A stretch of 64,000 bases of DNA from a bacterium (GTDB lineage: Bacteria; Patescibacteriota; Minisyncoccia; Minisyncoccales; CG1-02-41-26): contig JAGGXV010000022.1 in the NCBI GenBank assembly GCA_021162885.1, positions 57,571 through 121,570 of the forward strand. The letters run 5' to 3'. The notes beneath the pieces are model-generated. The model had not been told where the DNA came from, ran no database searches, and worked only from the letters and a program-made list of their open reading frames with translations. A program made the position numbers and the translations under genes. Shown here piece by piece: positions 1,651 to 30,159 of the stretch. Position 1 is the stretch's first letter, and each line of letters begins with the position of its first letter.

Positions 1651-1689
1651 AACTCCACGAATTACGAATTTATATGAATAAATATACGA

Positions 1690-1850: not shown

Positions 1851-1853
1851 TTC

Positions 1854-2285
1854 TTACACTCCCAGTTCTTTCAACCTTTCAGCGATATCTCCTGCTTCTT
1901 TCTCGGTTTTTTGTTTGTAAAAGTTCCAGTTCTTCTCATCCCAAATCTCAATCCGATTATAAAGACCAGCAATAACTACTTTTTTTGAAAGATGAGCATA
2001 TTTTTTTAAATAATCAGGAATTAAAATCCTTCCTAATCTATCTAAATTAACTTCCATGGCGCCTGCCAGCATTATTCTGACAAATCCCCTGGCATCAGCT
2101 TGAGACAATGGCAATTGGGATAACTTTTTAGCCAACTTCTCCCACTCCCTAACTGGATACAAAAATAAACAGTTGTCCAGCCCTCGAGTAACAATCGCTT
2201 TTTTACCCAAAAGCTGTCTAAATTTAGCTGGAATCGCCAACCGCTTTTTATCATCAATTGTATATGTGTATTCCCCTAAAAACAT
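1854..2285 (-). CDS. mraZ: division/cell-wall cluster transcriptional regulator MraZ
   Basis: 143 aa, MFLGEYTYTIDDKKRLAIPAKFRQLL... with the duplicated MraZ domain pattern. First gene of the dcw cluster. Confidence 0.85.
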   Translation of the reverse strand: MFLGEYTYTIDDKKRLAIPAKFRQLLGKKAIVTRGLDNCLFLYPVREWEKLAKKLSQLPLSQADARGFVRIMLAGAMEVNLDRLGRILIPDYLKKYAHLSKKVVIAGLYNRIEIWDEKNWNFYKQKTEKEAGDIAERLKELGV

Positions 2286-2289
2286 AAAT

Positions 2290-2480
2290 TTTAGTTATCC
2301 ACAATTCTGCCTAGTTATCCCCACATTTATCCACAATTTCCCATCTGTTTCCATTTTCTCTCCATTTTGAACCAAAGTCAATCACTTCTCTACACTTTTT
2401 AAAACCCTTATTTTTATTGAAAAATCAAGAAAAATTCTATTTTATGGATTATTTTTCCACAGATTTTCCACAATTGGCTA
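2290..2480. promoter_or_regulatory. cluster of TTATCCACA / TTATCCCCACA / TTTTCCACA boxes (DnaA-box consensus; alternatively MraZ GTGG direct-repeat operator) upstream of mraZ
   Basis: Perfect TTATCCACA at about 2295 and 2328. TTATCCCCACA at 2315. Two TTTTCCACA 11 bp apart at about 2453-2475. All within the mraZ upstream region. Confidence 0.4.
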
Positions 2481-2506
2481 GAAACAAAAAACCACCTCTT
2501 AAAAGG
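2477..2506 (-). terminator. rho-independent terminator after the surface-protein gene
   Basis: Minus strand reads ccaccttttaagaggtgg (hairpin) followed by TTTTTTG. Confidence 0.4.
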
Positions 2507-2649
2507 TGGCGGATTCTTTCAAAGATAACTAAGAGGCCAAGAGCACTTGCTGAAGGGAATATTTAAGTAAGGACGAGGGTGACTGCAAGGCAGCTTACCC
2601 GAGCCCCCCCTTTTTTTTGCTCCCTGAAGCAAATTGCCCGAGCCTCTAA

Positions 2650-4761
2650 TTACTCTTTGAAATATCCTTGAGTTTTGAGTTGAGAAATTTTTCTTTTCAA
2701 ATTCTTTTTTGCTCGGTATTCAGCTATTTCTCTTTTTCTTTTTTCTGTCCATTTATCTAAGGCAATAAATTTCGATTTGAGAATCCAAACTACAGCAAAT
2801 GCTATTCCCAAAGGAAATAAAACGGAATCTAAAATTCTATTGGTAATACCGGTGGGAACTTCAGTAATAATTCCAGCCACCGCTTTTCTTCGAACCCTAA
2901 CTTTACAGCTATCAGTATCGGAAGTTTCCTCGTTATAAGCTCGGGCAGTGTTGATTAGCTCAGTTTGGCCGTAGCCAAATTTTCTTTCAGAAGCGACTTT
3001 TGCTCGAAAGATAATTGTCTTTGACTTTCCCGGCGACAAATCTCCTATATTAATAGCGGTTTTGGTTATATTTTTGGTTTCAGGAACATTATCTATTTCT
3101 AAATTACCTTGATAGATTATTTTTGATGGCAAATCATCTTTTACCTTTACATTTTGAACCACCGCATCACCAGTTGATTTGACTACTATCTTAAAAAGCA
3201 ATTCATCTCCAGGGTTAGCACTTCTGTAGATGTTATACCATTTGCTATCTCCCCGAGACAGATTCTTGACTGATTTTGCAACACTTAACTCTCCTTCACC
3301 TAAACTTTTTACCCTTAAACTCCATTGACAATTTTTATTAGAAGAATCTCCATCAAGCCCGATGACGATATCTGAAGAAGGGGTTCCTTGCCAAGTTTTT
3401 GTCCAATAGTTATTTTCTCTAGAATATATTTTACTGCAGCCAGAACTGTAAATAACCAAATCATTTACATTACAACCTGCTCCTGACCAACTCAATTCAA
3501 CTTTAATTTTTTTACCAGCAGATTCTCGAACTTTGTAATATTTCCAATCGCCATTGTTCAAACAACCATCTCTTGAGTCGCCAATATACATATAACCATC
3601 AGGATTGGAACAGCTTGAAGTGCTTTTTGAACAAACTTCCTCCTCTTCTTGGTTAAGCACTAAAACTTGCATGCTATCAGAATCACTAAGCCCTTTATCG
3701 TCAGTAACAGTTAAGGTACAAGTGTAGGTTCTGTCATAACTGACTTCTGGTGCCGTGAAACTTGGTTGAGCAATATATCTGTTGGAAATATAACCTCCGG
3801 TACAGGACCATCGATAGCTTATTGGGTCTCCGTCAGGATCAGAGCCAGAGCCTTCTAAAGTTATTGAGTGGCTTTCGTAAACCTCTTTATCGGGCCCTGC
3901 AAAAGCCGTCGGTGAGTGATTGATATTATCCACTTTGGTAGTTACGATATTGCTTTCCAATGGCTCTGTTTCAGAGCTATCAATAACCGCTTTGTTGTAA
4001 ATGTAAGTTGTGCCAACCGGAAGACCATCTTTAATTCTAACTTTAAATATCTTAGTGCTCGAATCGCCTGCCTCTAAAGTCCCAATATTCCAGCTGATTT
4101 TTCCCCCAGAAACACTGCCTCCATCATTATCGTAAATATCAAGATAATTCTCGTCGTAATCATCGGATATTACTACCCCAGTGGCTGCGGCTTTCCCAGA
4201 ATTTTTGTAAGATAAAATATAACTTAATATTTCACCTGGTTGAGCCGTACTTTTATCAACCGATTTGCTTATTGAGAGTTCTGGAGTAAAAATTTCTTTA
4301 AGAGAAAAAGTTGCTGATATGTTGCGCACGCTATTTGCTTGGCCCGGCCAGTCATGGGTGTTCCAGCGATGGTCAACTCTAAGTGTATGCACCCCAGCAC
4401 TAAGGTCTCTTTCTCCTAAATTCTCATTTATATAACAATCTGTTCCGCAATCATGTGTTGTGCCAATATATTCTCCGTCAACAAAAAATTTAACTTGTTC
4501 GTGCTTTTGTATCTCGGGGCCATTGCAGTAAGCGTTAAGATAGAGGTCGTATTTTCCCCCATAAGGTAAATTAATGGTGGTTGTTCGCGAATGGATTGGA
4601 TGGTAATCGTCCCAAGCGCAAACTCCTCCTCCAAAATCTGCTGTGTATTCAGCAATATAGCTCTGAGCAAAAGCAAAATTTAAAGGCAAAACTATCCCTA
4701 TTAGAACTAAAGATAACATTTTGCTAGAGATTATTAGTTTGTTTTTGTTTTCGTCAGTCAT
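2650..4761 (-). CDS. large secreted cell-surface protein with DUF11/CARDB-like repeats and a PKD domain, C-terminal TM anchor and charged tail
   Basis: 703 aa. N-terminal signal/TM (LSLVLIGIVLPLNFAFA). PKD-like PDGDPISYRWSCTGG. C-terminus ...EVPTGITNRILDSVLFPLGIAFAVVWIL then KSKF...KRKREIAEYRAKK (sorting-signal-like). Confidence 0.6.
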   Translation of the reverse strand: MTDENKNKLIISSKMLSLVLIGIVLPLNFAFAQSYIAEYTADFGGGVCAWDDYHPIHSRTTTINLPYGGKYDLYLNAYCNGPEIQKHEQVKFFVDGEYIGTTHDCGTDCYINENLGERDLSAGVHTLRVDHRWNTHDWPGQANSVRNISATFSLKEIFTPELSISKSVDKSTAQPGEILSYILSYKNSGKAAATGVVISDDYDENYLDIYDNDGGSVSGGKISWNIGTLEAGDSSTKIFKVRIKDGLPVGTTYIYNKAVIDSSETEPLESNIVTTKVDNINHSPTAFAGPDKEVYESHSITLEGSGSDPDGDPISYRWSCTGGYISNRYIAQPSFTAPEVSYDRTYTCTLTVTDDKGLSDSDSMQVLVLNQEEEEVCSKSTSSCSNPDGYMYIGDSRDGCLNNGDWKYYKVRESAGKKIKVELSWSGAGCNVNDLVIYSSGCSKIYSRENNYWTKTWQGTPSSDIVIGLDGDSSNKNCQWSLRVKSLGEGELSVAKSVKNLSRGDSKWYNIYRSANPGDELLFKIVVKSTGDAVVQNVKVKDDLPSKIIYQGNLEIDNVPETKNITKTAINIGDLSPGKSKTIIFRAKVASERKFGYGQTELINTARAYNEETSDTDSCKVRVRRKAVAGIITEVPTGITNRILDSVLFPLGIAFAVVWILKSKFIALDKWTEKRKREIAEYRAKKNLKRKISQLKTQGYFKE

Positions 4762-4816
4762 AAATTTTATGATTAAATTTTATCACTTATTATATTCTTT
4801 GTCAAGAGGAGAGTTA

Positions 4817-5428
4817 CTAAATGGGTTTTGCTAAAATAGCCAATCTTTTGAAATCTTTTCCCGGTGGCCAACATGTTATAAGCACTAATTGGGAATTATC
4901 TTTATTGTTTTCTGACAAGAAGTTTTGACCATTTTGGGGATAAAAAATATTTTTATCATAAACTTGATAAACATACTTGCGATTCCTGTAATAAATAATA
5001 ATTTCATCTCCCTTTTGTAATTCATCTAAACGACTGAAAACATCGTCATAATTTATCTTTGGCCAGTTAGGAGGCGCGCTGTGGCCAAAAATTAATGTCC
5101 TGCCATGCTCGTTTGGCAAAGAATAATCTGGATGTAGCAAAACTCCTTTTTTTAAGGCATTTTTAAAATCTTTTTCATTGTTGCTTTCAGTAAAAATAAT
5201 TGGAGCTTCAATTCCAATTTTAGGAATCTCAATAGAGTTTTCTTTATCAAAATAACTCTCTTTTCTTAACTTCTCCTCGGATTTGTCTTTTTGGAAAAAA
5301 TCAGAGACCTGAGCAGAAATAACTCTATAATTAAAAATCCAGGAAATATCGTTCCAGTTTACAATCAAAAAACTTACCAGAAATATAGAAATAAAAAACT
5401 TGTAAAGATGTTTGATATCCTCTTTCAT
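4817..5428 (-). CDS. sortase-family transpeptidase
   Basis: 203 aa with N-terminal TM. His motif TLIFGHSAPP, catalytic Cys motif LVLITCWPPG (TLxTC), downstream Arg (KDFKRLAIL). Adjacent to the candidate substrate. Confidence 0.55.
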   Translation of the reverse strand: MKEDIKHLYKFFISIFLVSFLIVNWNDISWIFNYRVISAQVSDFFQKDKSEEKLRKESYFDKENSIEIPKIGIEAPIIFTESNNEKDFKNALKKGVLLHPDYSLPNEHGRTLIFGHSAPPNWPKINYDDVFSRLDELQKGDEIIIYYRNRKYVYQVYDKNIFYPQNGQNFLSENNKDNSQLVLITCWPPGKDFKRLAILAKPI

Positions 5429-5433
5429 ACCTT

Positions 5434-6402
5434 TTAATAAATACCTAAGTTATGCGGAATGAATTGAATTACAAAATCTTTGCTTATGAAGATGAACAAA
5501 ACCAATATGGCTCCAATGAGAACTGTTTTTAAAATTAAATCTTTATGTTGAATGTCAAACCTGACAAAAACATTTAAAAATAAAGCAGAAACAATAAAAA
5601 TCAATGAATAGGATATAATTTTGTGCAATAAATTATTATATTTTTTTGTCATAAATTTCAAAAAATTAAAGAAAGTGCTGGTTTCTCCTTTAACTTCTTC
5701 TTGAATATCTCCTTGTTTTTGTCTTTGTTCCGATTTTTGCTCTGGTTCTGTTTCTGGAGCTGAGACGGGAGCTGTTTCGACAACTCCTTCAACCCTCTTT
5801 TTTTTCGGTTCAACAAGTGATTGTTGGGGCGAACCAAAAAGCTGAACAACCACTGTCGCTTCGTTTCCTTTAAAATTTCCCTTTAAAATAGCAATTCCAA
5901 TATCTTGGTATTTCGGATTTAAGAGATTTGCTCTATGAGAAGGAGAATTGTCCCAGGCTCGATAGATTTCTTCTGAATCCAGAAATCCTATACCTAAATT
6001 CTCCCCTGCTACTTGATAATTATAATTTGCCTTTCGGAACCAGTACCAGGGAGTTGTTCCATCGGGACTTTGGTGACTAAAATAACCTTTATTGAGCATA
6101 TCTTGAGCTTTAAGCTGAGCTGCTTTATTTAATAGCGGGTTTTCTCTCAGTGGGTTAAGGCCTAAATCCTTCCTTTGTTGATTAGTCAGTTCAATTAAAG
6201 TAATTCTTGAAATCTCAGCGAAAAAGGGTGTGTTTGGAAAATAAAACAGAAAAGAAATAAAAACAAACTTTAAAAGAACTACAACCAAAAGATAATAAAA
6301 TAAAAATTTGCTCTCTAAAAACTTCGGCCGATAACTATTTTCCTCACAGGGAACAAATATTATTTTTAGTTTTACAGCAATCTTTTTGAACTTCGATTTC
6401 AT
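5434..6402 (-). CDS. CAP/SCP/PR-1-like domain protein (YkwD-like), membrane anchored
   Basis: 322 aa. NQQRKDLGLNPLRENPLLNKAAQLKAQDMLNKGYFSHQSPDGTTPWYWF...GENLGIGF...NSPSHRANLLNPKYQDIGIAI matches the CAP domain. N- and C-terminal hydrophobic segments. Confidence 0.6.
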   Translation of the reverse strand: MKSKFKKIAVKLKIIFVPCEENSYRPKFLESKFLFYYLLVVVLLKFVFISFLFYFPNTPFFAEISRITLIELTNQQRKDLGLNPLRENPLLNKAAQLKAQDMLNKGYFSHQSPDGTTPWYWFRKANYNYQVAGENLGIGFLDSEEIYRAWDNSPSHRANLLNPKYQDIGIAILKGNFKGNEATVVVQLFGSPQQSLVEPKKKRVEGVVETAPVSAPETEPEQKSEQRQKQGDIQEEVKGETSTFFNFLKFMTKKYNNLLHKIISYSLIFIVSALFLNVFVRFDIQHKDLILKTVLIGAILVLFIFISKDFVIQFIPHNLGIY

Positions 6403-6509: not shown

Positions 6510-7673
6510 TTATTCTTCAGGAAAACTCTCTAATAATTTCTTAAGTTCTTCCATTTCTTCTGGAGAAGGAAGTTGTTCGGAAGGATTTTTTTCCGGGGTT
6601 GAGGAAAAAAGTCCAGAACTCTGAAGCGATGATTCTTGAGGAGAAAATCCAAATACTCCCGAGGGTAAAATTTCCTCCAAGGGTTTGAACTCTCCAGGAG
6701 CTTCAATTTTTAACTCTTGATTGAAATCGGAAAATTTAAAATCAATCGCCATTTTTATTTTTGCTTGCTCCGCTTCAGTCTCTTGGAATTGCTCAAACTG
6801 ACTTAAATTTATTTCTTTTTCTCCTTTAATTCTTCTTAACCAACTATTCCTACTTATCCAAACCTCAAAAGTTATCGGTCCAACTTTACTGAAAAACTTC
6901 TCAAAATTTTGAGGCAAACTAACCATTGCTTCTTTCAATTTTTCTTCGTAACTGACTTTCTCTTCCTCGGGCAGATACTTTTTAAGTCTTGGTAAGAACT
7001 CCAAAATCACCTCTTTAACTTCTTCTTTTTTCAAACTAACCAAAAGGTGGTTAACTTTAACTCCATCAATTTCTTCTGTGCCAAAATCTTTTTCAATTTT
7101 GAAAAACTTTCTTCCTTTCAAAGCCTCAACAAACTCTTCAACCATTTCTTTTGTTTTCTCTTTATCGGTAGATTGAGTGGTGGTTGGAATTTTACCTTGT
7201 AATCTTTGGGTTAGCGATTCTTTACTGATTTTGAACCATTGATTTTTAAATTCTTCCAAACCTTGAGCCAGAAAAGGAATAGTTGGTAAGCGGTTAAAAA
7301 CGAAATAGAGGTCTCCCTCAATAGTTCTCAACTCGCCAGCAAAACAAAACTCTATCCCTTCACTTCCCAAAGTTATTTCAAAATCAGAAGAACTTTTCGC
7401 ATTTTTAATATCTAAATTGTTCAAAAAATCAGCAGAAATCTGAAAACTCTCGGTTCTTTCTTCCCCAACTTCCTCAATAGTAAAGTCAATATCTCCCTCA
7501 GTTTTCAAACTCTCCAATTTTATCATTTCAGCCATTGCTCTCTCAACCATTTCTTCTCGAGAAGAAACAAAAGGATTCCAGAGAGGGTTCCAAAGTTGAG
7601 TATAAAGAGCCAGCAATGTTCCCCCAATCGCCACCACGATAACTATTGGTATTAAAATTTTAAGTTTTGGCAT
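6510..7673 (-). CDS. hypothetical secreted/membrane protein, acidic
   Basis: 387 aa, N-terminal TM (ILIPIVIVVAIGGTLLALY). No recognisable domain. Confidence 0.4.
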   Translation of the reverse strand: MPKLKILIPIVIVVAIGGTLLALYTQLWNPLWNPFVSSREEMVERAMAEMIKLESLKTEGDIDFTIEEVGEERTESFQISADFLNNLDIKNAKSSSDFEITLGSEGIEFCFAGELRTIEGDLYFVFNRLPTIPFLAQGLEEFKNQWFKISKESLTQRLQGKIPTTTQSTDKEKTKEMVEEFVEALKGRKFFKIEKDFGTEEIDGVKVNHLLVSLKKEEVKEVILEFLPRLKKYLPEEEKVSYEEKLKEAMVSLPQNFEKFFSKVGPITFEVWISRNSWLRRIKGEKEINLSQFEQFQETEAEQAKIKMAIDFKFSDFNQELKIEAPGEFKPLEEILPSGVFGFSPQESSLQSSGLFSSTPEKNPSEQLPSPEEMEELKKLLESFPEE

Positions 7674-21026: not shown

Positions 21027-21617
21027 TTATTGAACTTCTCTAATCATCTTAAAAATCTTCTCCTTTAATTTTTTATTGGTTACAGTTATATTCAATACTC
21101 CAAATTTACTCTTTTTTCGGTAAGTCCCTTTTCCTTGAGGAGGTATCCTAATTATTTTACCAAGCTGGTCCTTTTTAATTCCAAGATGTTGCTCCCAAAA
21201 TTTTATGGCCTCTTTTTCATTACAATCATTAAATAAAGTTAGATAATATCCAAATTTTTCTTCTTTAGTACCGCATATCTCTACTAAAAATTCCCGAAAT
21301 TTCTTAATGAGTTGAGGGTCACTATTACTCATTCGAACGGCTGTATTATTACTACTTTTATCCCCTTCGCCCCAGTATAAACCTAACCCGATTCCTTTTA
21401 ATAAAATTTCCTCCTTATTGAGCTTATTTTTGATCTCAAATGGATCACCATTTGGATTTCTTTTGACATAAGTAGCTTCGCTCATCGATCTCCGTGGAAT
21501 GCCAAATTTTCTCATCCAATAAACGATTTTTTCATATTTCCACCCTGTTCTATCAGAAATTTCCATCATTGATAAACCACTCTTATATAGTTTTTTTAAT
21601 TTTTCTTTGGGCAACAT
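21027..21617 (-). CDS. free-standing LAGLIDADG-like homing endonuclease with N-terminal HTH, paralog of 62296-62982
   Basis: LYKSGLSMMEISDRTGWKYEKIVYWMRKFGI (HTH). GIGLGLYWGEGDK (LAGLIDADG-like). NSDPQLIKKFREFLVEICG. Shares motif order with the second copy (YWSEG..., NSDPKMILLMLRWFKEIC). Flanked directly by tRNA-Tyr (1 nt away) and tRNA-Thr (17 nt). Confidence 0.5.
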   Translation of the reverse strand: MLPKEKLKKLYKSGLSMMEISDRTGWKYEKIVYWMRKFGIPRRSMSEATYVKRNPNGDPFEIKNKLNKEEILLKGIGLGLYWGEGDKSSNNTAVRMSNSDPQLIKKFREFLVEICGTKEEKFGYYLTLFNDCNEKEAIKFWEQHLGIKKDQLGKIIRIPPQGKGTYRKKSKFGVLNITVTNKKLKEKIFKMIREVQ

Positions 21618-21701
21618 TGGGTGTGAGTGGAGTCGAACCACCTGGGCTCAGAGAGCTATGGTTTTACAGACCATCCCCGCGCCGTACGGGACTACACACC
21701 C
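21618..21701 (-). tRNA. tRNA-Tyr (anticodon GTA), long variable arm
   Basis: Minus strand GGGTGTGTAGTCCCGTACGGCGCGGGGATGGTCTGTAAAACCATAGCTCTCTGAGCCCAGGTGGTTCGACTCCACTCACACCCA. Anticodon stem ATGGT/ACCAT with loop CTGTAAA. Confidence 0.8.
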
Positions 21702-21735: not shown

Positions 21736-22413
21736 TTATTCAATGATTTTGCTGTGTTTTTTCCGCCATTCTTCAATTTTTTTGTGATTTCCAGATAAAA
21801 GGACTTTGGGTACTTTCCATTGAACTCCTTTTTTTGGTTCAAAAACTTCGGGCCTGGTATATTGAGGATATTCTCGAAATCCTTTCTCTTTGGTAATTCT
21901 TTCTTCTAATAGTTCGGATTTGCCAATAACTCCCTTAATCAATCTTGCCACTGTTTCAATAAACACTAAAGCGGGCAACTCACCGCCCATTAAAACATAA
22001 TCTCCTATCGAAATCTGTTCATCGCAGAGATACTTTGCCACCCTTTCGTCAATCCCTTCATACCTGCCACAAATTAAAATTAACTGCTCAAGTTTTGCAA
22101 ATTGACTTGCCATTTTTTGATTAAATTTTTTCCCTCGCGGGGTAAACAAAATCACTCTCGATTTGGGATTTGGGATTTGTTTGGGATTTCTCAAGCTGGA
22201 AACCGCTTTAAATATAGGTTCCAGCTTGAGTATCATTCCCCTACCCCCACCAAAAGGTTTGTCATCAACCTTTTTGTGTTTGTCTTCAGTAAAATCTCGG
22301 AGATTATGAACTTTAATTTTTATCACTCCTTTTTCTTGAGCTTTTTTTAAAATGGAATGTTTGAAATAAAAATCAAAAATCTCGGGAAAAATGGTAATGA
22401 TGTCAAATTTCAT
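21736..22413 (-). CDS. trmD: tRNA (guanine37-N1)-methyltransferase TrmD
   Basis: [41 protein letters not shown]...[12 protein letters not shown]...; contains in-frame GGGATTT repeat insert ([13 protein letters not shown]). Confidence 0.9.
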
Positions 22414-22481
22414 AAAAATGAAAAAACGAAAACGGCGCTATCTTTATAATAGCACCGTCTCCGCGAGAATTCAATTGGAAG

Positions 22482-22802
22482 TTATAGCTTTAAATCTTCC
22501 AATCCTTCTTCTTTCTTTTCTGGAGCCTTCTCTTTTGCGGGAGCTTTTCCGCCGGCGGGCTCTTCAATCTTTAAGTTAACTCTGGCATGATTCTTGAGCC
22601 CAACAATCCGGACAAGATTCCTGATTGCTCTAGCGGTTGCTCCAGCCTTGCCAATAACAGCGCCCATATCTTCAGGATGGACTTTTAGGCTGAGCAAGAC
22701 TCCCATCTCATCCACTTTCCGGTCCACTTTAACATCATCAGGATGATCAACCAAAGCCTTAACTACGTACTCCAGAAATTCTTTATCAGTCTCTTTTGCC
22801 AT
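22482..22802 (-). CDS. KH-domain RNA-binding protein (YlqC/UPF0109 family)
   Basis: MAKETDKEFLEYVVKALVDHPDDVKVDRKVDEMGVLLSLKVHPEDMGAVIGKAGATARAIRNLV. Usual neighbour of rpsP/trmD. Confidence 0.75.
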   Translation of the reverse strand: MAKETDKEFLEYVVKALVDHPDDVKVDRKVDEMGVLLSLKVHPEDMGAVIGKAGATARAIRNLVRIVGLKNHARVNLKIEEPAGGKAPAKEKAPEKKEEGLEDLKL

Positions 22803-23206
22803 ATTCTTTATCTTTGAATTCAATTATTCACTTTTAATCAGTAGCTCGACCTTTCTTTCCTCCGATCTCCTCAATAATTCAGAGAGTCGGTCCTTGAAGA
22901 AAAGCTACATTTTTCATTTTACCCATTTAACAAAATATGTCAAGGGAAATCGCAAAAACTGCCACAAGCAGGATATCAAATAAGCTTTTCTCCAGGAAGC
23001 TGCCAGCAGGTCCCAGAATGATACGAGCATTTTCTGAGAAAGCGAGGAGAGAGATTTTTGTCTCAGGCAATTGCCAGAGACAACTTTCTCGTCTAATGCC
23101 TGATCTGGATTCAGTCCCTCGGGGGAGGGGCTAAAACCTGCTGACAGCTCCCTGAAGAAAAACCCATTTTTAATTTTACCATTTTTTTTCTTCTCCGTCA
23201 AACTCT

Positions 23207-23278
23207 CCCAGTCTCCTAAACCCAGAATAATTAACATTTCGGCACAATCGTGCCCATTTGTTAACGATTGATTTTGTT
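23207..23278. promoter_or_regulatory. 58-bp repeat R1 containing palindromic operator TTAACATTTCGGCACAATCGTGCCCATTTGTTAA (second copy at 27785-27852)
   Basis: Near-identical to 27785-27852 (3 mismatches). Imperfect palindrome with a GCAC-AATC-GTGC core. Lies at the left edge of the GC-rich island. Confidence 0.45.
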
Positions 23279-23364: not shown

Positions 23365-23529
23365 ATGCAAAAAGCAACCACTCAACCAAAAACTAAACTA
23401 CCTCGAATTCAAACCCCAAAAGAAATTCTGAAAATCTGGGAAAGAGCTCGAGGAATATGGAAAAGCAAGAAACTCGACCCTATTAGGTATCTCAAGAAAA
23501 CTCGCAAAGAATGGGAGAAAATTTTGTAA
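23365..23529 (+). CDS. putative VapB-like antitoxin (54 aa)
   Basis: MQKATTQPKTKLPRIQTPKEILKIWERARGIWKSKKLDPIRYLKKTRKEWEKIL. Stops 4 nt before the PIN-domain gene. RGIWK...DPI.Y..K.RKEW pattern resembles small antitoxins. Confidence 0.45.
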   Translation: MQKATTQPKTKLPRIQTPKEILKIWERARGIWKSKKLDPIRYLKKTRKEWEKIL

Positions 23530-23532
23530 TCT

Positions 23533-23904
23533 ATGTTTACTCTCGATACCAATATTATCATTTATTATCTTAAAGATGAATCTAAAGTATTAAAATTTTT
23601 GCGTGAGGAGATTTTAGCCGGCTCACGCTTTTTTATTTCAACAATCACCGAGGCAGAGCTTTTTGGTTATCCTCAAATTACTTCTGAAGAGGCAATAAGA
23701 ATCAACGAAGTTTTAGCCACTCTTTCAATTATTCCTATCGATTCTCAAATAGCCAGATTGGCTGGTCTTTTCAAAAGAAAATATCAGATTTCTCTTCCTG
23801 ATGCCATTATTGCTGCCACCACCTATCTCACTAATTCCACTCTTGTTACTCGCAATATTCGAGATTTCCAAAAAATCAAAGAAATTAAAGTAAAATCTAT
23901 TTAA
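23533..23904 (+). CDS. vapC: PIN-domain toxin VapC
   Basis: MFTLDTNIIIYYLKDE...TITEAELFGYP...ISLPDAIIAATTYLTNSTLVTRNIRDF with PIN acidic residues. Confidence 0.8.
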   Translation: MFTLDTNIIIYYLKDESKVLKFLREEILAGSRFFISTITEAELFGYPQITSEEAIRINEVLATLSIIPIDSQIARLAGLFKRKYQISLPDAIIAATTYLTNSTLVTRNIRDFQKIKEIKVKSI

Positions 23905-24039
23905 CCCTCATCCAATATTTATTTTCAAAGAACTCACTTACAGATTTCCCGTAAGTTTTTTTTATTCCCAATCTCCTAAATCCAGAATAGTTTACCCCAT
24001 TAGAAATGGAATTTCTAAGCAGAGTAAATTCCAAACTTG

Positions 24040-24215
24040 GGAGATTAGGGAAGGAGGGAGATAAAGTGCGAAAAAACTCTTCCTCCTTCCTTATTATTTC
24101 AACCCTTATCTTTTTACAGCCGGCCAGGGTAACTCCGGCTAACCTTTTAGTTTTAGTTCCTCTTCAGAACTATGGCAGTCGGCTACTGTCAGGAATCTTT
24201 GCCGCCTTTTCTCAC
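24040..24215. repeat. about 175-bp repeat, copy A (shared with 25205-25365), begins with purine/pyrimidine hairpin GGAAGGAGG...CCTCCTTCC
   Basis: gggaaggagggagataaagtgcgaaaaaactcttcctccttccttattatttcaacccttatctttttacagccggccagggtaactccggctaaccttttagttttagttcctcttcagaactatggcagtcggctactgtcaggaatctttgccgc is nearly identical in both copies. Confidence 0.6.
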
Positions 24216-24231
24216 CGTGTTACCACGGGAA

Positions 24232-24729
24232 TCACGGCTTATCGACCCTTTCCAAGGCCGATTTTTTACTGTCCAATTTCTGTCCAACCACTACCGCCCA
24301 TTTCCCGGTTCGAATCGCCGCCTCAATTTCTGCTTGGGGTAGATCCGGAGTAATCAACTTGAACGAATCTTCCGGAATGAAATCCACAAGAGAAAGAGTT
24401 GGTTTCCACTCTCTCAGCCCCATCCAGATATTGCTCCTTTCCTGCCGGGAAAATCCAGAATAAACCCCAGCCCGATCAAATGACCCAGCAGGAATAAAGA
24501 CCTTCACATCCCATTTCTGTTTCAACCCAGCAAGAATTCCTTGAATTGCTACTGGTGTCCTGTCCTCATTCCATGGTTCTGAATTCCACTCTCCTCGAGC
24601 GGTCCAGAATTTCAGCTCCTTATAGATAGATTCCGGTTTCCGGCCAATCTCCTCCGACAACCGATAAACTCTTAACACAAAATTAAGCCCGATAAAAACA
24701 AGAACTTTCATTTTTTCACCTCCTTTCAT
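24232..24729 (-). CDS. hypothetical protein (GC-rich island)
   Basis: 165 aa; GC-rich codon usage unlike the host genes. Confidence 0.35.
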   Translation of the reverse strand: MKGGEKMKVLVFIGLNFVLRVYRLSEEIGRKPESIYKELKFWTARGEWNSEPWNEDRTPVAIQGILAGLKQKWDVKVFIPAGSFDRAGVYSGFSRQERSNIWMGLREWKPTLSLVDFIPEDSFKLITPDLPQAEIEAAIRTGKWAVVVGQKLDSKKSALERVDKP

Positions 24730-24730
24730 T

Positions 24731-25078
24731 TCATTTCTTTAACCAGCCCGGTATCGGGACCTCTCGGCCATCTCGCCGAGAGAGCCCTAACTCTTCAAGC
24801 GTAAACTCAAAGAGTACGGCTCCCCGGGAGATGTAACGAGAACATCTTCCTCGTTGGCGAAGAATCTCCTTCTTCACCAGCTCCCGGGCTTCATCCTTCC
24901 GGCCATCTCGAATCAGCTGGATAACCGGAAGATGCCTCCCCTCCGCGAACTTAATTTGTGGATCACCCGGGGAGTAGGCAATCCACAAATCCGGACGTTT
25001 GAAGGGGTTAACTACATAAACAACCCCTTCATCCGCCTTTCGGCCCCGGGGAGGGCCGAGGGATTTAAAAAATTCCAT
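24731..25078 (-). CDS. hypothetical protein (GC-rich island)
   Basis: 115 aa; tightly packed after previous gene. Confidence 0.35.
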   Translation of the reverse strand: MEFFKSLGPPRGRKADEGVVYVVNPFKRPDLWIAYSPGDPQIKFAEGRHLPVIQLIRDGRKDEARELVKKEILRQRGRCSRYISRGAVLFEFTLEELGLSRRDGREVPIPGWLKK

Positions 25079-25204
25079 TTTATCCTCCTTTCCCTGCCTG
25101 CCATTACTGTACTGGTCAGGTCTTACGGGAAAACTCCGTTTAAATTTTTAATCTACTAACCGTTTAAATTTAGAATCTTACTATTCTAAACTTAAATTGG
25201 TTAG

Positions 25205-25365
25205 GGAAGGAGGAAGATAAAGTGGGAAAAAACTCTTCCTCCTTCCTTATTATTTCAACCCTTATCTTTTTGCAGCCGGCCAGGGCGCTCCGGCTAACCT
25301 TTTAGTTTTAGTTCCTCTTCAGAACTATGGCAGTCGGCTACTGCCAGGAATCTTTGCCGCTCTCT
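25205..25365. repeat. about 165-bp repeat, copy B; followed by about 140 nt not present in copy A before homology resumes at cacggcttatcgaccctttgcc
   Basis: See copy A. Plus-strand ORFs over the two copies are in different frames, so the repeat is likely non-coding. Confidence 0.6.
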
Positions 25366-25527
25366 ACCGGGTTGCTGCTGCCCTCCGATTGGTTACGGTT
25401 GAGACAACCTTGGCCCGCAGTTCCCCGTTGTTTACGGGACTGCCCTTCGGCTTCTCGGGCTTACCTCGCTATCATCCCGAGTCGCCTAGACACACGGCTT
25501 ATCGACCCTTTGCCAGGGCCGGGGTTA

Positions 25528-25794
25528 CTACCTCAAAACCTCCCAATTTGTGACCTCCCAAATTCCATAATGGGAGGCCACATCCCCCACACAGGCTTTC
25601 ACCCATGTGAGGACAGAAAACAAACTCATCTGAGGTAGCAACCCAGCGATCGAGAGTTCCAACTCCCCCTTTTTTTTCGGGGTGAGCTGGACGCCCTCGA
25701 TCGCCAGCTCACTTAAAATGTACTTCCGCAATGATTCCGGAAAAGAATCCGGAAACTCTTTTCCGTCATTGCGGAAAATTTTTATTTTTAACAT
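25528..25794 (-). CDS. hypothetical small protein (island)
   Basis: 88 aa; good RBS ggaggtgagaggATG; C-terminal half overlaps the hairpin-rich region. Confidence 0.25.
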   Translation of the reverse strand: MLKIKIFRNDGKEFPDSFPESLRKYILSELAIEGVQLTPKKKGELELSIAGLLPQMSLFSVLTWVKACVGDVASHYGIWEVTNWEVLR

Positions 25795-26023
25795 CCTCTC
25801 ACCTCCATTTTCTCCCCGTCGGGCTCCAAGGCCTTAATGGGGATTGATGCGAGGCCGCTATTCGCGAAATTAGTGGTAAATTCGCGCAAATTCGCGAATA
25901 ACCACGAACACCGGCCTCGCTTCAATTATCCTAAATTACATCTCCTTTCTCAATTCACTAAAATTTAATTAATGGACTAAGAAGGAAGGTGGAAGAAAAT
26001 GGAAACTTTCTTCCACTTTATTT

Positions 26024-26395
26024 CTATTTCTTTTTGTAATAAAACTTTATCGCTTCTTCCACTATCTCAGGAAACTCCGCCTGAGGGTCTTTATCCTTTT
26101 CTGATTTCCAAATAGCAGCTCCAATTGGACAATAGCCAATTCCATAAACTGCATTTTTGCAGACCTTTGGATATTCAGGAGTGTCATGGATTTTACACCT
26201 GGCCTGAATCCATTTATTCCCTTTTTTGTGCCGTCGAACAAGATACTTACAATAGCTACAATCCGATTTCCAGGATCCATCGGGTAATTCCAAAGAATAA
26301 CTCCAACAACACCAGCCGCATCGGAGACAAATAAATGTCTCTCTTGCCATTTTCAGAAACTCCTTGAATTTCTCATAATCAAACTTTTCTGCCAT
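26024..26395 (-). CDS. YkgJ-family putative zinc/iron-chelating Cys-rich protein (CxxCGxCC, PF03692-like)
   Basis: FICLRCGWCCWSYSLELPDG...CSYCKYLV...ARCKIHDTPEYPKVCKNAVYGIGYCP. Confidence 0.55.
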   Translation of the reverse strand: MAEKFDYEKFKEFLKMARETFICLRCGWCCWSYSLELPDGSWKSDCSYCKYLVRRHKKGNKWIQARCKIHDTPEYPKVCKNAVYGIGYCPIGAAIWKSEKDKDPQAEFPEIVEEAIKFYYKKK

Positions 26396-26720
26396 TTTTT
26401 ACTCCTTATAATTTTTTTTTCAAAAGAACTATTTTTTACTCACCCTCCTTACTCAACTCCTTATTTCAGTATAAGGAACTAAGTATGAAGGGGGAAGAAA
26501 AGTAATGAGTAACTTTCTTCCCCTTTTTTTCTAATTGTCCGGGATGTCGGCCGACTTCGAAGGCGCCGACTCTGGCCCTCCCTTAAGGCACGGCTCACCA
26601 AAGGGTTCGCCGTGGAGGTTATTCGCGTAGGACCTTATTTCGGGTTACCCCTTATTCGTGTCCTACCTTATTTCCCTCACCCCAGGCACTAACCCGGCCT
26701 GGCGGGTAATTGCAGGGCGG

Positions 26721-27041
26721 TTACACCTTTACCACATCTCCTACCTTAACGGTAGGAGAGTGGCTTTCCACTACCACCCCACCCAATCTTGGGTCAAAAC
26801 ATCCGACCCAAGTAGTGGGGTGGTAGTGGTGAACCAGCGTGGCAAAAAGCCACACTGGTCCCCGCCCCGAGAGGATGACCCCTTTTTGAGGGTTGACCTC
26901 CGGGGCGGATTTCACCACCCCTTCGAGCTCTTGGGGAGTTAAACTCCCCTCGAGCTCAAACCTGACAAGCGTGAATTGCTCACGCTCATCAGGAAAAAAT
27001 TTCATTTTTCTCACCTCCTTTCCCGAATCCGCAATTTTCAT
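26721..27041 (-). CDS. Csx3/Crn3-like protein (CRISPR-associated cyclic-oligoadenylate ring nuclease / deadenylase family), standalone
   Basis: FTLVRFELEGSLTPQELEGVVKSAPEVNPQKGVILSGRGPVWLFATLVHHYHPTTWVGCFDPRLGGVVVESHSPTVKVGDVV matches the recalled Csx3 core (GV.ISGRGP.WL...LVH..H...WV..FDPRLG..VVV.SH). Alternative start M13 at about 27005. Confidence 0.5.
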   Translation of the reverse strand: MKIADSGKEVRKMKFFPDEREQFTLVRFELEGSLTPQELEGVVKSAPEVNPQKGVILSGRGPVWLFATLVHHYHPTTWVGCFDPRLGGVVVESHSPTVKVGDVVKV

Positions 27042-27092
27042 TCCGAACTCGGGAAATTAGGGAAACCCGAGAGTGTAAAGGTTTCCCTTATT

Positions 27093-27713
27093 TTATTTTT
27101 TATTATCACCTCCTTTCCAAACGACAGCATAGGGAGTGAAAAAGTAATCTGCTTCCCATCCGCCGTCGTAATTAATGTCCCCAAACCTTTTCTTCCCCAT
27201 ATAGGCAATATGCCTCAGGGGATTAAATTTTTCCGGTTTGGGTTTTATCAGCTTCCGCCCTATCCAATTCTGTCCACAAATCCACCGGTCAGCTTCTACC
27301 CAACTGTAAGCCACAACTTCAGCCCAGTTCACTTCCACAATCTGCCAGTTCACTTCCGGGTACTCTTCCTTTACCTTAGGAAAATCAGCTGCTTTTATTG
27401 CCCAGCCCCAGACTCCAGTATCTAGTACCCGCTCCGCTTGAGAATTATCGTAATTAGGATTCCGAATGAACAACAAATCCATCAGGGGACAAATCACATC
27501 TTTCCAGCCAGCAGTGGGTAGTTTCTTCCAGTTGCAGATCGGCATTCCTAACTTGCCACTCTTTTCTCCACAAATCACACATTTCCAATACACCGTTCTC
27601 CGATCAGCACAGTCCCGATAGCATCCTGCATTAACCCACGGACATTCCCCATACCTTAATGCCTTTAAGACATGGGTATGGGTTACCCCAACTTTTTTTT
27701 TCATCTTTCTCAC
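27093..27713 (-). CDS. hypothetical Cys-rich protein (island)
   Basis: 206 aa. N-terminus GECPWVNAGCYRDCADRRTVYWKCVICGEKSGKLGMPICNWKK; Trp-rich C-terminal domain. Confidence 0.4.
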   Translation of the reverse strand: MRKMKKKVGVTHTHVLKALRYGECPWVNAGCYRDCADRRTVYWKCVICGEKSGKLGMPICNWKKLPTAGWKDVICPLMDLLFIRNPNYDNSQAERVLDTGVWGWAIKAADFPKVKEEYPEVNWQIVEVNWAEVVAYSWVEADRWICGQNWIGRKLIKPKPEKFNPLRHIAYMGKKRFGDINYDGGWEADYFFTPYAVVWKGGDNKK

Positions 27714-27784
27714 CTCCCTCCAGCCAACTATTTCTAATTAACTAAAGGGAGGCGAGAAATTCCATATTCAATTTTCAAACAACA

Positions 27785-27900
27785 TCCAGTCTCCTAAACC
27801 CAGAATAATTAACATTTCGGCGCGATCGTGCCCATTTGTTAATGATTATTTCTTGTTTTAATTTTGTAACAAATCTCTGCGATCGTAAGATTTTGTTACA
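27785..27900. promoter_or_regulatory. two tandem palindromic operators with GCGATCG cores upstream of the 27713 gene
   Basis: O1 TTAACATTTCGGCGCGATCGTGCCCATTTGTTAA is a copy of R1. O2 is TGTAACAAATCTCTGCGATCGTAAGATTTTGTTACA. Confidence 0.45.
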
Positions 27901-27962
27901 CTTTATTCCGAACTTGGGAGATTGGGGAACTTAATAAGTTGTGCCTCCTTTCAGTTCCCCGG

Positions 27963-28346
27963 TTATCTATTGTTGAGAGTGCGGCGAGTCCAGTGGGGCT
28001 TCCGAAATTTTTTTACCGCTGGAAAATTCTGGAGAATTTTTTCCACTCGAGCGAGAAACTCTTTCACCAGTTCCTGCCCATTTCCATTTCGAAAAGCAAC
28101 TTCAAGCTCTGTTCCGCTCATCCACATCGGGATAATTCCTCTCTGAAGCGAATCCATTCCTTTTCCATTGAGAATCGCTTTTCTATTCACTGAGAATTGA
28201 ATCGGAAGCCAACTTCCATCGTGTCGAACCCAGAAATCTACCTTGAATTTTTCGTCTTCTGCTCGAGTAGCCCGTCGAACCTCAGTCCCGTTGCGATCCA
28301 GAAGCTCAACCATCCATTCCTCGGCCTTCAAACCGAACTTTTTCAT
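27963..28346 (-). CDS. hypothetical protein (island)
   Basis: 127 aa, no recognisable domain. Confidence 0.35.
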   Translation of the reverse strand: MKKFGLKAEEWMVELLDRNGTEVRRATRAEDEKFKVDFWVRHDGSWLPIQFSVNRKAILNGKGMDSLQRGIIPMWMSGTELEVAFRNGNGQELVKEFLARVEKILQNFPAVKKFRKPHWTRRTLNNR

Positions 28347-28468
28347 CCTTTCTCACCTCCCTTTCTTCTTTCTCAATCCCCTACCTTGTAAGGGACTAAG
28401 AAAGAAAAGGGATGGACTTTGAATTGAGTGCTTCTCTCCAGCCATCCCTTCTGGAGAGAGTTATTGAG

Positions 28469-29083
28469 TTACCATTTTCCGTTGAAAGGGTACACTTTCT
28501 CCACCCGGACATGAGAGAATAACTTAGTATTCTCTAGTCGATCCAAGGTATCCATTAGAATTTCAACCGGTTTCTTTAGGGGTTCCTTCCCAATCCAGTC
28601 ATTACCCAATTCTACAATCGCCCGCACGTAATAGGATTCCGGAGACCAAGTTTGCAAGCCCTTGGCTTCTAATCTATCCGCTGCTTCCTGATCTATCCCG
28701 ACAGACAAATTCATAAGCAAATTGCCATCGGAATTACAATATAGAAACCACTTGAAAGGATTCCCTCTATAGAATCCAGTGCCATATCCGAACCTTCTCG
28801 CCCATGCATGTTTTCCGTCCTCTTCATAAGAACTCTCGAACCTTGTCTCGCACAACTGGAAAAAACTCTCCTGTGCCTTCAATGTATACAGTTCTCCCCG
28901 CAACACCCCAGCTTCATTTTTAATCTTTACCACTTCATTTTCCAGTTCTATTCTTGCAGTTTCCAGAATCTCCACCTTTCCCTTCCATCTCTCCACTTCT
29001 TTCTGAAGAGAAGAGATATAGAATGCTCCGACTGCCACAACGACAGCCAATCCAACTGCCAGACCAATCATACCCTTAGTCAT
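28469..29083 (-). CDS. hypothetical membrane-anchored coiled-coil protein (first gene after the structured leader)
   Basis: 204 aa. N-terminal TM MIGLAVGLAVVVAVGAFYI, coiled coil, then a W/Y-rich globular domain. RBS aggaggaaaggtATG. Confidence 0.4.
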   Translation of the reverse strand: MTKGMIGLAVGLAVVVAVGAFYISSLQKEVERWKGKVEILETARIELENEVVKIKNEAGVLRGELYTLKAQESFFQLCETRFESSYEEDGKHAWARRFGYGTGFYRGNPFKWFLYCNSDGNLLMNLSVGIDQEAADRLEAKGLQTWSPESYYVRAIVELGNDWIGKEPLKKPVEILMDTLDRLENTKLFSHVRVEKVYPFNGKW

Positions 29084-29099
29084 ACCTTTCCTCCTAATT

Positions 29100-29955
29100 T
29101 TTATTCTCCTTCTATTTTAGCAAGGAGTGCACCGCGCACTTTCGGCCAACAACTTACTTTTGGACAGCAAGTGTTGGTTGGCGCGTCCGCCGATGAAAGT
29201 GCACGGGCGCACTCATTACTAAGGTTGAGAGGGGCGGAGGCGAGCGAAATTCACTTTTCTTCTCCTCGGAGAGAAAAGTCAACCTCACTCCTTATTTACG
29301 TCCCTTAGCGGGAAACCTCACATTACATTTACCCCTGATTGCCGCAACCTGTCTTTTAAGGTACTGACTCTCTCCTCTGAGAGAAGGATGGAGGAGAATT
29401 GATTAGGAACTGAGGAAGATTGAGGCCAAAATTTTTAATCTCCTAAGGGAGGGGCTTGCCTTCTTCCTCAAAGCCATTTTATTGCCTACCGAGTAAGGGC
29501 ACACAAAGCCACAAACCAAGCCAGGCATTTTAGCTCACATTCCGCTTTCAGCGAAATGACTCTCTCCTCCATCCTTCTCCCCCAGAAGTTTTTCAACCTC
29601 CGGAAGAGTTCCTTATTAAGTTGGAAGGTGCTTTCTCCTCAAAATTCTTTGAATTTTGAGGACCCCACTTTCGCCAGCGACTCCTTCCGCTTTTAGCGGG
29701 AGTCGTGCTCGCTGGCGGCCAAAGGAGACTTATCTCCTTTGGAATTCTTTTTTTTAAACAAACAGGCGGCTCTCGGAGAGAGCCGCCTGTTTGCTAAATT
29801 TTCGTTATAAAGCTCTATAACGAACGGCTTTTTTTCCGCCACGCTTTTACCGCGCGACGACTCTCTCCTCTGCCCCGTTAGATACGAAGTTATCTAACTG
29901 GGGTCTTTTTTTTTATTTTTATTTAATTTGGAAGAGCTTTTTTATTTTCTCCAGA
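29100..29955 (-). ncRNA. about 850-nt hairpin-rich untranslated leader / candidate ncRNA downstream of the triple promoter
   Basis: No ORF of 60 aa or more on the minus strand. Strong hairpins: aaacaggcggctctc..gagccgcctgttt; cgccagcgagcacgactcccgctaaaagcggaaggagtcgctggcg; ccaaaggagataagtctcctttgg; cctcaaaattcaaagaattttgagg. GAGGAGAGAGTC recurs three times; inverted copies lie about 190 bp apart. Confidence 0.3.
29873..29920 (+). terminator. plus-strand intrinsic-terminator-like hairpin plus T9 run; on the minus strand it sits just downstream of the P1 transcription start
   Basis: ccccgttagatacgaagttatctaactggggtcttttttttt. Confidence 0.35.
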
Positions 29956-29962
29956 CACTTAC

Positions 29963-29991
29963 ATTATAGCATATCGTTAAATTCTTGTCAA
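29963..29991 (-). promoter_or_regulatory. perfect consensus sigma70 promoter P1 (TTGACA-17-TATAAT)
   Basis: Minus strand ccTCTTGACAagaatttaacgatatgcTATAATgta. Confidence 0.7.
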
Positions 29992-30030
29992 GAGGTTTGA
30001 AGGAATTTTCATCTTTTTGCAACCGCTTTA

Positions 30031-30059
30031 ATTATAGTATATTTTCATATTCTTGTCAA
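30031..30059 (-). promoter_or_regulatory. perfect consensus sigma70 promoter P2 (TTGACA-17-TATAAT)
   Basis: Minus strand TTGACAagaatatgaaaatatacTATAATtaa. Confidence 0.7.
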
Positions 30060-30111
30060 GGACATTTGCATTCTTTCAACAAATTTCTTCTCACACTCTC
30101 AGACATTTTTA

Positions 30112-30140
30112 ATTATAGCAAATTGAATTAGTTTTGTCAA
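30112..30140 (-). promoter_or_regulatory. perfect consensus sigma70 promoter P3 (TTGACA-17-TATAAT)
   Basis: Minus strand TTGACAaaactaattcaatttgcTATAATtaa. Confidence 0.7.
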
Positions 30141-30159
30141 GAGCTAAACAACTTATTTA

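Follow-up and report, generated by a model that had tools for sequence, protein, structure and literature searches.

Encoded on the minus strand of a 64-kb stretch of bacterial DNA (contig JAGGXV010000022.1, positions 57,571–121,570; the whole stretch is referred to here as the window) is a small protein of the Csx3 family, whose members, also named Crn3, are ring nucleases that degrade the cyclic tetra-adenylate (cA4) of type III CRISPR signalling. Its gene lies in a short, compositionally foreign segment inserted between housekeeping genes. The reading that we favour, at slightly better than even confidence, is that this Csx3 is a solitary off-switch for cA4, acquired horizontally and derived from a mobile element, because the segment has a foreign composition and occupies a cargo hotspot, because the gene has no CRISPR linkage, and because its closest relatives are likewise solitary and are carried by mobile elements.

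Two features make up the gene itself:

26721–27005 (stop included), minus strand: coding sequence of the Crn3/Csx3 ring nuclease, 94 aa, assigned from hidden Markov models (HMMs), fold and conserved residues

27006–27064, minus strand: 5′ region of csx3, a 14-bp hairpin on a CCCTAATTTCCCGAGTTCGGAAT motif followed by the Shine–Dalgarno (SD) sequence GGAGGTGA, read from the sequence

The open reading frame (ORF) spans 26721–27041 on the minus strand (106 aa) and holds the Csx3 core GVILSGRGPVWLFATLVHHYHPTTWVGCFDPRLGGVVVESHSP that the initial annotation had quoted from it. Translation almost certainly starts at the ATG at 27005 (MKFFPDE...) and not at 27041; this ATG stands 7 nt behind the SD sequence, and the extension from 27005 to 27041 is probably untranslated. 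Public gene calls on three other contigs give the same length of 94 aa, and an identical protein is publicly deposited under the name 'CRISPR-associated protein Csx3 [bacterium]'. The arms of the 5′ hairpin (27059–27046 and 27041–27028) enclose a GAAA loop, and the upstream block also precedes a different ORF in two related metagenome contigs (L020/L117). Directly 3′ of the stop are four tandem units of ~16 nt (26640–26705, minus strand; GAAATAAGGTAGGACAC, GAATAAGGGGTAACCC, GAAATAAGGTCCTACGC and GAATAACCTCCACGGC), set in a GC-rich 3′ region that is absent 3′ of the csx3 of another lineage (L022); single-sequence folding of this 3′ region is not significant (z = −1.8).

The family proposed for the product holds by profile and by predicted structure. 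Pfam PF09620 is matched over model positions 2–78 of 78 (E = 7.7e-30, 103 bits; cutoff 21), the NCBIfam equivalog TIGR02579 scores 111 bits (cutoff 55.4), and the PADLOC Csx3 models agree at 1e-28 to 1e-32. A phmmer search of PDB sequences returns Archaeoglobus fulgidus Csx3 (AfCsx3) only (6VJG, 3WZG-I and 6YUD, ~1e-23), with 47–55% identity to these chains. The AlphaFold2 model, built from 28 homologues (predicted local distance difference test (pLDDT) 97.1, predicted template-modelling score (pTM) 0.88), has the AfCsx3 fold, a beta-alpha-beta sandwich distantly resembling STAS and CARF domains: the top 13 Foldseek matches are all AfCsx3 chains (TM-score 0.90–0.93, root-mean-square deviation (r.m.s.d.) of ~1.0 Å), the best of them including the cA4 complex 6YUD (TM-score 0.93, r.m.s.d. 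of 1.0 Å).

Invariant in alignments of 20 and 28 sequences are S46, G47, R48, G49, P50, W52, H59, H62, D71, P72, R73, L74 and H82, among which S46, G47, R48, H59, H62, D71, R73 and H82 correspond to S44, G45, R46, H57, H60, D69, R71 and H80 of AfCsx3. In the archaeal enzyme the residues in contact with cA4 make up the 'D69 face', and the 'H60 face' carries the metal and catalytic histidines (Athukoralage et al. 2020, PMC7371418). Like AfCsx3 (AF1864; PDB 6YUD, 6VJG, 3WZG-I), the window protein is a single domain of similar size (94 aa here, ~104 in native AfCsx3), and its cA4-binding (S, G, R, R) and catalytic (H, H, D, H) residues are identical. Neither outcome that would have refuted the first assignment, a missing HMM match or another fold, occurred, and the protein is therefore a member of the Crn3/Csx3 family, with an intact active site; a type III association is the typical context of the family and not a structural criterion, so that membership stands for a solitary copy. 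On its residues and modelled fold, the protein would be expected to cleave cA4. Compared with the copy in another lineage that is 80% identical and lies at the homologous site (L022), csx3 has a ratio of non-synonymous to synonymous substitution rates (dN/dS) of 0.22, and is thus maintained by selection. The family is already known and biochemically characterized, and this copy is already so annotated publicly; it is in setting that it differs from AfCsx3, which an archaeon encodes next to its type III CRISPR genes, whereas the window copy is solitary in a chromosome of the bacterial candidate phyla radiation (CPR).

The 64-kb window belongs to the core chromosome of a bacterium with a small genome and carries rsmH, mraZ, rplJ/L, ychF, trmD, a KH protein gene, rpsP, rnc, dnaE, thrS, miaA/B and gatB, together with folD, glyA, thyX, rplK, nusG, a gyrB with an apparent intein and pheST. 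ThrS shares 73–75% identity with sequences labelled Parcubacteria, Patescibacteria and Candidatus Nealsonbacteria, which makes the host a Parcubacteria-type CPR bacterium. As first described, the window holds no CRISPR array (Tandem Repeats Finder and a repeat finder) and, among its ORFs of at least 110 aa, which are housekeeping or unknown, no match to cas genes; nor do these ORFs match CARF, SAVED or cyclase genes. CARF, SAVED, cyclase and effector domains are likewise absent from ten otherwise unassigned ORFs, and csx3 has no type III-like neighbour over ~26 kb to one side and ~37 kb to the other. The earlier suggestion that this lineage probably has no CRISPR system at all is a reasonable prior, given that CRISPR-Cas occurs in 1.4–2.4% of Parcubacteria/Microgenomates genomes (PMC4742961, PMC6509639).

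Among representative genomes of the GTDB, the Csx3 family is found mostly in archaea and in thermophilic or sediment bacteria. The places from which homologues come hint at a hydrothermal origin for the samples. The closest homologues outside the lineage (P0004, P0005 and P0006; 61–63% identity) are solitary genes on conjugative-type contigs of 37–85 kb; TraG/VirD4, TrbC, topoisomerase III-DUF3945 and ArdC genes lie within ~10 kb of them, and cas genes are absent over 10 kb. In these comparisons csx3 is the sole gene common to the window and to their loci. Directly after a Prim-Pol gene lies a further homologue (P0013, 57% identity), on a phage that also encodes terminase, portal and Mu-F proteins. 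Six IMG/VR contigs (77–273 kb), viral by gene content, encode Csx3 at 42–57% identity, surrounded by genes for ribonucleotide reductase, ThyX, PhoH, a methylase, KilA-N, RusA, primase, RecA, lysins and terminase. The best 25 of the 61 Pfam families over the whole loci include no cas family, and neither do the best 25 of 26 within ~3 kb. Other close homologues lie among ORFans or beside a restriction-modification methylase.

A third kind of setting is provided by a contig of a metagenome-assembled genome labelled 'Patescibacteria group bacterium' (L050, JAQVJW010000022.1), whose csx3 is frameshifted in a C8 run; P0007, the intact form of this Csx3, shares 64% identity with the window protein. 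In the region 1150–6210, a complete type IV-B operon encoding Cas11, Csf2/Cas7, Csf3/Cas5, a CysH-like protein and Csf1/Cas8 lies ~1.3 kb from this gene. Type IV-B systems are typical of plasmids, and the 47% GC content of the contig points to a plasmid-like element that had been binned together with a CPR genome.

Deposited mobile elements rarely carry the gene: tblastn found no Csx3 in 50,697 phage records, and only three of 72,556 plasmid records encode it. In a published survey of 28,114 phage genomes, AcrIII-1, Csx20 and Csx16 were found and Crn3 was not listed (Hoikkala et al. 2025, PMC12409355). One of the plasmid records (L129, NZ_CP133039.1; Pyramidobacter sp. YE332 'plasmid unnamed', 18 kb, linear) carries crn3 at 6603–6887, with WP_317539484.1 as its product, together with genes for a holin, Rha, an integrase, a LexA/cI-type repressor, a cro-like helix-turn-helix protein, a DNA polymerase and VapE, and no cas gene. 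Here crn3 is part of an early rightward operon, behind the cI/cro-type regulators and ahead of the replication genes. The record is evidently a temperate-phage-like element, and thus a deposited phage-like element encodes Crn3. The residues GR...H..H...D.R...H are kept in all these mobile-element copies, and no report of a solitary Csx3 or Crn3 on phage and conjugative contigs was found in the literature searched.

The segment in which csx3 lies has the following parts, all of its eight ORFs being on the minus strand:

23905–30150, minus strand: hypervariable accessory segment of foreign composition, lying between KH-trmD/VapBC and udk-rpsP and delimited by GC content, GC content at third codon positions (GC3) and comparison with relatives

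28469–29083, minus strand: p204, with an N-terminal transmembrane stretch and a coiled coil, first gene of the segment, no family match

27963–28346, minus strand: p127, the commonest cargo of the site in relatives, no family match

27093–27704, minus strand: p203/p206, a Cys-rich protein, directly upstream of csx3 with an 88-nt gap

26024–26395, minus strand: 123-aa protein with a CLRCGWCC motif, downstream of csx3, a distant relative of the CxxCxxCC/YkgJ superfamily

24232–25794, minus strand: three ORFs of 165 aa (24232–24729), 115 aa (24731–25078) and 88 aa (25528–25794), GC3 0.45–0.58

23365–23904, plus strand: VapB-like protein (54 aa) and VapC PIN toxin (123 aa; Pfam PIN, E = 1.8e-16)

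GC content is 43–47% over ~24.0–30.1 kb and ~34% elsewhere in the window, and the GC3 of csx3 is 0.57 against 0.26–0.33 in core genes, with 0.26–0.32 for trmD, udk, rpsP, rnc, thrS, dnaE and glyA. Scans of the eight segment proteins and VapBC with Pfam, PHROGs, NCBIfam and PADLOC matched only Csx3 and the VapC PIN domain. The VapBC pair, low in GC, stands at the inner edge of the variable region and is missing at this position in two related contigs (L020, L022).

The site between rpsP/udk and KH-trmD is a cargo hotspot across the lineage, edged by conserved hairpins and a structured RNA. A p203 homologue with 77% identity (L020/L021/L117) lies directly upstream of the KH-trmD genes without csx3; nucleotide homology of the L020 type to the window takes in the upstream hairpin, p203 and the 5′ region of csx3 as far as its third codon, and then jumps to 23183. 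The 80%-identical Csx3 (L022/L023) is followed by a terminator, a hairpin element and the conserved RNA (window 23165–22986), with a different gene upstream and neither p203 nor the CxxC gene. In a further contig (L114), a homologue of the CxxC protein (57% identity) occupies the hotspot without csx3, and p127 is matched by tblastn at 42–59% in L104, L108, L110–112, L115 and L119. Across the hotspot contigs p127, p203, udk and the CxxC protein are mixed differently and joined by unrelated ORFans. Between the window and L020, the synonymous divergence (dS) of p203 is 0.59 and that of the flanking KH and trmD genes (21736–22802) ~1.67; at about one-third of the KH/trmD value, the p203 figure is consistent with an exchange of cargo more recent than the divergence of the chromosomes. 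Three other assemblies repeat the interior of the segment at >99.8% identity, ending inside repeats. An assembly chimera was considered, and the chromosomal placement is supported by this assembly together with synteny in L020, L114, L119 and L022. The description of the hotspot as a set of hairpin-bounded 'cassettes' is descriptive.

Neither upstream nor downstream neighbour has a ready family. In p203 no match was found with the four databases named above, only three homologues exist among 5.8e9 proteins, and an AlphaFold2 model from four sequences is unusable (pLDDT 35). The downstream protein was first described as YkgJ-like, and its CLRCGWCC motif bears this out in part: it shares with the YkgJ/UPF0153 family (PF03692) the CLRCGxCC motif, later conserved cysteines and a similar length, but has no direct match to Pfam, PF03692 included, at E ≤ 1. 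Five of the 26 members of its own small family match PF03692 weakly (best E = 2.5e-4), so that it is a distant branch at most, and it is unlinked to Csx3 elsewhere. Next to its homologue in L114 is a 303-aa protein (1330–2238, minus strand) with DxD...GGSG...DHH-like motifs, whose copy in L108 (5382–5954) lacks the DHH triad; its assignment as a DHH phosphoesterase was a motif guess without Pfam support and was rejected.

How a solitary Csx3 would act can be sketched from AfCsx3, by homology, fold and residues. Dimers of the protein would stack head-to-tail around cA4, sandwiching it between the H59/H62/H82 face of one dimer and the D71/R73/S46–R48 face of the next, and Mn2+-dependent cleavage would yield linear A2 products. 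The gene probably came from a higher-GC pool, in which solitary copies of csx3 are carried by conjugative elements, by phages and by plasmid-like elements of type IV-B, and in the Parcubacteria lineage it is one interchangeable cargo gene of the hotspot. Its most probable role is that of a stand-alone off-switch for cA4-activated effectors, and so of counter-defence or anti-toxicity cargo of mobile-element origin, now kept by purifying selection in the chromosome.

The counter-defence role is suggested by analogy with AcrIII-1 (DUF1874)/Crn2, a small stand-alone cA4-degrading enzyme of viruses and plasmids directed against type III systems. The solitary Csx3 proteins of phage and conjugative contigs share this lifestyle, but the two folds are unrelated, and the mechanisms differ: AcrIII-1 works without metal and binds cA4 within one dimer; Crn3 depends on Mn2+ and on tetramerization in head-to-tail fashion. 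AcrIII-1 has anti-CRISPR activity; gene context is the ground on which the mobile-element Csx3 is likened to it. Of the three roles first offered for the gene (an orphan signalling component, an anti-defence ring nuclease carried by a mobile element, and part of a new signalling module), the second fits best by this analogy, and the foreign, accessory character of the island holds as first described; its acquisition by way of a mobile element is less directly visible.

Several observations weigh against a horizontally acquired off-switch. The family scans found no integrase, relaxase, type IV secretion system or phage structural gene in the segment, and because no hallmark gene of a mobile element is present, such an origin of the segment itself is inferred and not observed. 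Two close homologues are CRISPR-linked (P0011, 60%, adjoining RAMP and Csx1-type genes; P0020, 55%, adjoining Cas3-like, DevR and Csx1 genes), so that membership of this clade alone does not indicate a mobile-element lifestyle. The independent short contigs L001–L003 do not reach the junctions with the core genes. A counter-defence gene would have no obvious chromosomal beneficiary if the cell makes no cA4, and in vivo AfCsx3 neutralized Csx1 only partially by comparison with AcrIII-1 (PMC8284326). Finally, the absence of CRISPR and cas genes applies to the 64-kb window.

A broader form of this reading is speculative and rather unlikely. Crn3/Csx3 would have been recruited repeatedly as a mobile anti-type III factor by phages, conjugative elements and type IV-B plasmids of thermal and sediment communities; in Parcubacteria it would have become cargo of an undescribed, hairpin-bounded, integrase-less cassette-exchange hotspot, where either a co-resident element or the episymbiont would be shielded from effectors triggered by cA4, which might even be those of the partner cell.

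Among the rival explanations, the one that survives best is that the protein is a host regulator of a type III CRISPR-Cas system, or of an orphan cA4-activated effector, encoded elsewhere in the genome, resetting cA4 after infection. This is the canonical role of Crn3 (PMC7371418, PMC8284326), and the intact gene under purifying selection, the CRISPR-linked homologues P0011 and P0020, and the type III-A systems that hot-spring CPR bacteria do carry (PMC6509639) are all consistent with it. Yet csx3 usually lies beside type III loci, with csx1/csm6 as its commonest neighbours (PMC8284326), and none is present in the window; the low frequency of CRISPR-Cas in Parcubacteria/Microgenomates, and the status of csx3 as a variable, compositionally foreign cassette missing at the same site in relatives, also speak against it, and we consider a host regulator possible but unlikely.

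Quite improbable is a different substrate for the enzyme, namely 3′ oligo(A) tails, on which AfCsx3 was first reported to act as a deadenylase, or a cyclic oligonucleotide made by a non-CRISPR cyclase, with a role in RNA turnover or in another defence pathway. No source of cA4 is visible in the window, and AfCsx3 has been described as cleaving RNA and poly(A) in a Mn2+-dependent manner (Yan et al. 2015, as summarized in PMC7371418 and PMC8284326), but this activity has since been reinterpreted as secondary to the ring-nuclease activity (PMC7371418, PMC8284326), every cA4-contacting residue is conserved, and the window holds no alternative cyclase. Just as improbable is that the gene was transferred recently and persists as a hitch-hiking remnant without function in this cell: the strongly foreign composition (GC3 0.57), the lack of partner genes and the frameshift in the related copy of L050 would be expected of such a remnant, whereas the window gene has an intact ORF, a strong SD sequence and all catalytic residues, and its dN/dS of 0.22 is measured against a copy in the hotspot of another lineage.

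The proposal that csx3 forms a novel, CRISPR-independent nucleotide-signalling module with p203, the CxxC protein and other neighbours is highly improbable, for although these genes are close together on one strand, share an upstream hairpin and SD architecture and have uncharacterized products, the independent assortment of p203 (without csx3 in L020/L021), the CxxC gene (without csx3 in L114) and csx3 (without either in L022/L023) argues against a dedicated module, as do the loci of the closest homologues, to which csx3 alone is common, the hairpin and 325 nt of non-coding DNA that part csx3 from the downstream CxxC gene, and the lack of any cyclase-like or sensor-like domain detected with Pfam and PADLOC.

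Apart from csx3, the hotspot has regulatory and RNA features of its own:

29963–30140, minus strand: three tandem sigma70-type promoters, TTGACA-17-TATAAT, perfect 12/12, read into the segment

27785–27927, minus strand: intergenic inverted-repeat hairpin with the G·U-rich arms CCCCAATCTCCCAAGTTCGGAATA and TATTCTGGGTTTAGGAGACTGG, a second copy of which lies at 23966–24052

22985–23165, minus strand: structured RNA candidate of ~180 nt at the hotspot's inner edge, immediately ahead of the promoter of KH-trmD

The promoters are at 30140, 30059 and 29991 and, within 29100–30141 on the minus strand, are followed by an ORF-poor leader of 850 nt (29950–29100, 46% GC). In the leader lie three copies of GAGGAGAGAGUC (29870, 29569 and 29377), a motif whose complement, UCUCUCUCCUC, is invariant in the RNA candidate. 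The only part of the leader kept elsewhere is a 40-nt hairpin (29754–29798), which there lies 3′ of rpsP.

Marking gene boundaries in the rpsP–KH hotspot is a hairpin element with arms close to CCCYAATYTCCCRAGTTYRGAAT and ATTCTGGRTTTAGGAGAYTGG, found also at 27028–27064 and 23206–23235 and in L104–L123, and often preceded by a GGGGAA...TTCCCC terminator-like stem. The element is strand-specific, because it is rich in G·U pairs. Its arm is present in 20 metagenome contigs of low-GC, CPR-like genomes, often at the rpsP–KH site, and many of these contigs are the rnc-rpsP ... KH-trmD region of related low-GC genomes. Viral contigs gave no match to the motif, so that the elements of the hotspot look chromosomal (Parcubacteria) and not viral.

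The RNA candidate is kept in six loci (the window; L020, 1317–1512; L022, 534–725; L104, 725–927, minus strand; L108, 6222–6425; L119, 1862–2065). It has a closing helix of ~28 bp, internal hairpins and an invariant AAAUCUCUCUCCUC, and of its 65–70 predicted pairs 14–18 show compensatory changes (alignments A5 and A8). Rfam, at gathering thresholds and at E ≤ 1, gives no credible family for the candidate or for the GC-rich non-coding stretches of the segment; resemblances to RNase P or SRP RNA, noted by eye, were dropped for want of an Rfam signal.

In front of p203, the SD sequence is apparently sequestered in a hairpin (27756–27743 with 27724–27711): in this 5′ untranslated region (27711–27756, minus strand) CUCGCCUCCCUUUA can pair with CUGGAGGGAGGUG, which would hide the SD sequence. 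The same type of 5′ fold is found in L020 (~335–390) and, before a different gene, in L119 (~1240–1300); standing before different genes, it may be a translational control element. Elsewhere in the segment, a 160-nt direct repeat (24045–24205 and 25201–25360, 96–99% identity) is ended by a terminator hairpin after two different genes, and ~270 nt of GC-rich sequence before its second copy (25260–25530, minus strand) fold somewhat better than shuffles (z = −2.5), with no Rfam match.

Like the gene-cassette arrays of chromosomal integrons and of clusters of attC sites lacking integrases (CALIN), the segment is a series of small genes, mostly ORFans, that share one orientation and follow strong promoters; imperfect inverted-repeat hairpins separate the genes, a toxin-antitoxin pair is embedded, and at a fixed chromosomal site the content varies between close relatives. 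The segment differs from such arrays in that many of its genes have their own terminators and that no attI is recognizable. By inspection, the arms of the conserved imperfect hairpins lack the R″/R′ consensus of attC sites, and no IntI-type integrase was found in the Pfam, NCBIfam and PHROGs scans of the segment proteins or by eye among the translated ORFs of the window. With neither an integrase nor an attC consensus, an integron was not adopted as the explanation.

The core genes of the window also appear to carry a selfish load. By reading, the 1,184-aa GyrB (54903–58457) has an intein-like insertion, and two ORFs adjoining tRNA genes (21027–21641 and 62296–62982) resemble LAGLIDADG-type homing endonucleases; a group I intron lies at 63100–63347 (Rfam, 69 bits). 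A ThyX-like protein of double length (445 aa, 51484–52821) has two Thy1 stretches, and its gene is raised in GC content (43.5%) and GC3 (0.42) relative to its neighbours.

Two things here are less ordinary than the family itself: a csx3 that stands alone and is under selection in a CPR chromosome, without a CRISPR gene in 64 kb, and the occurrence of solitary csx3 genes on phage and conjugative contigs, paralleling AcrIII-1/Crn2. If a type III system is present elsewhere in the genome, the finding becomes an ordinary one. If the solitary Csx3 proteins are active anti-CRISPRs, Crn3 would join AcrIII-1/Crn2 as the second cellular ring-nuclease family used by mobile elements, a use not reported in the survey of cultured-phage genomes, which names AcrIII-1, Csx20 and Csx16 only (PMC12409355). 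The conserved RNA elements of the hotspot are worth study in their own right, and for the biology of CPR bacteria the locus is a concrete case of defence-related cargo turning over at a fixed site in genomes that are mostly without CRISPR.

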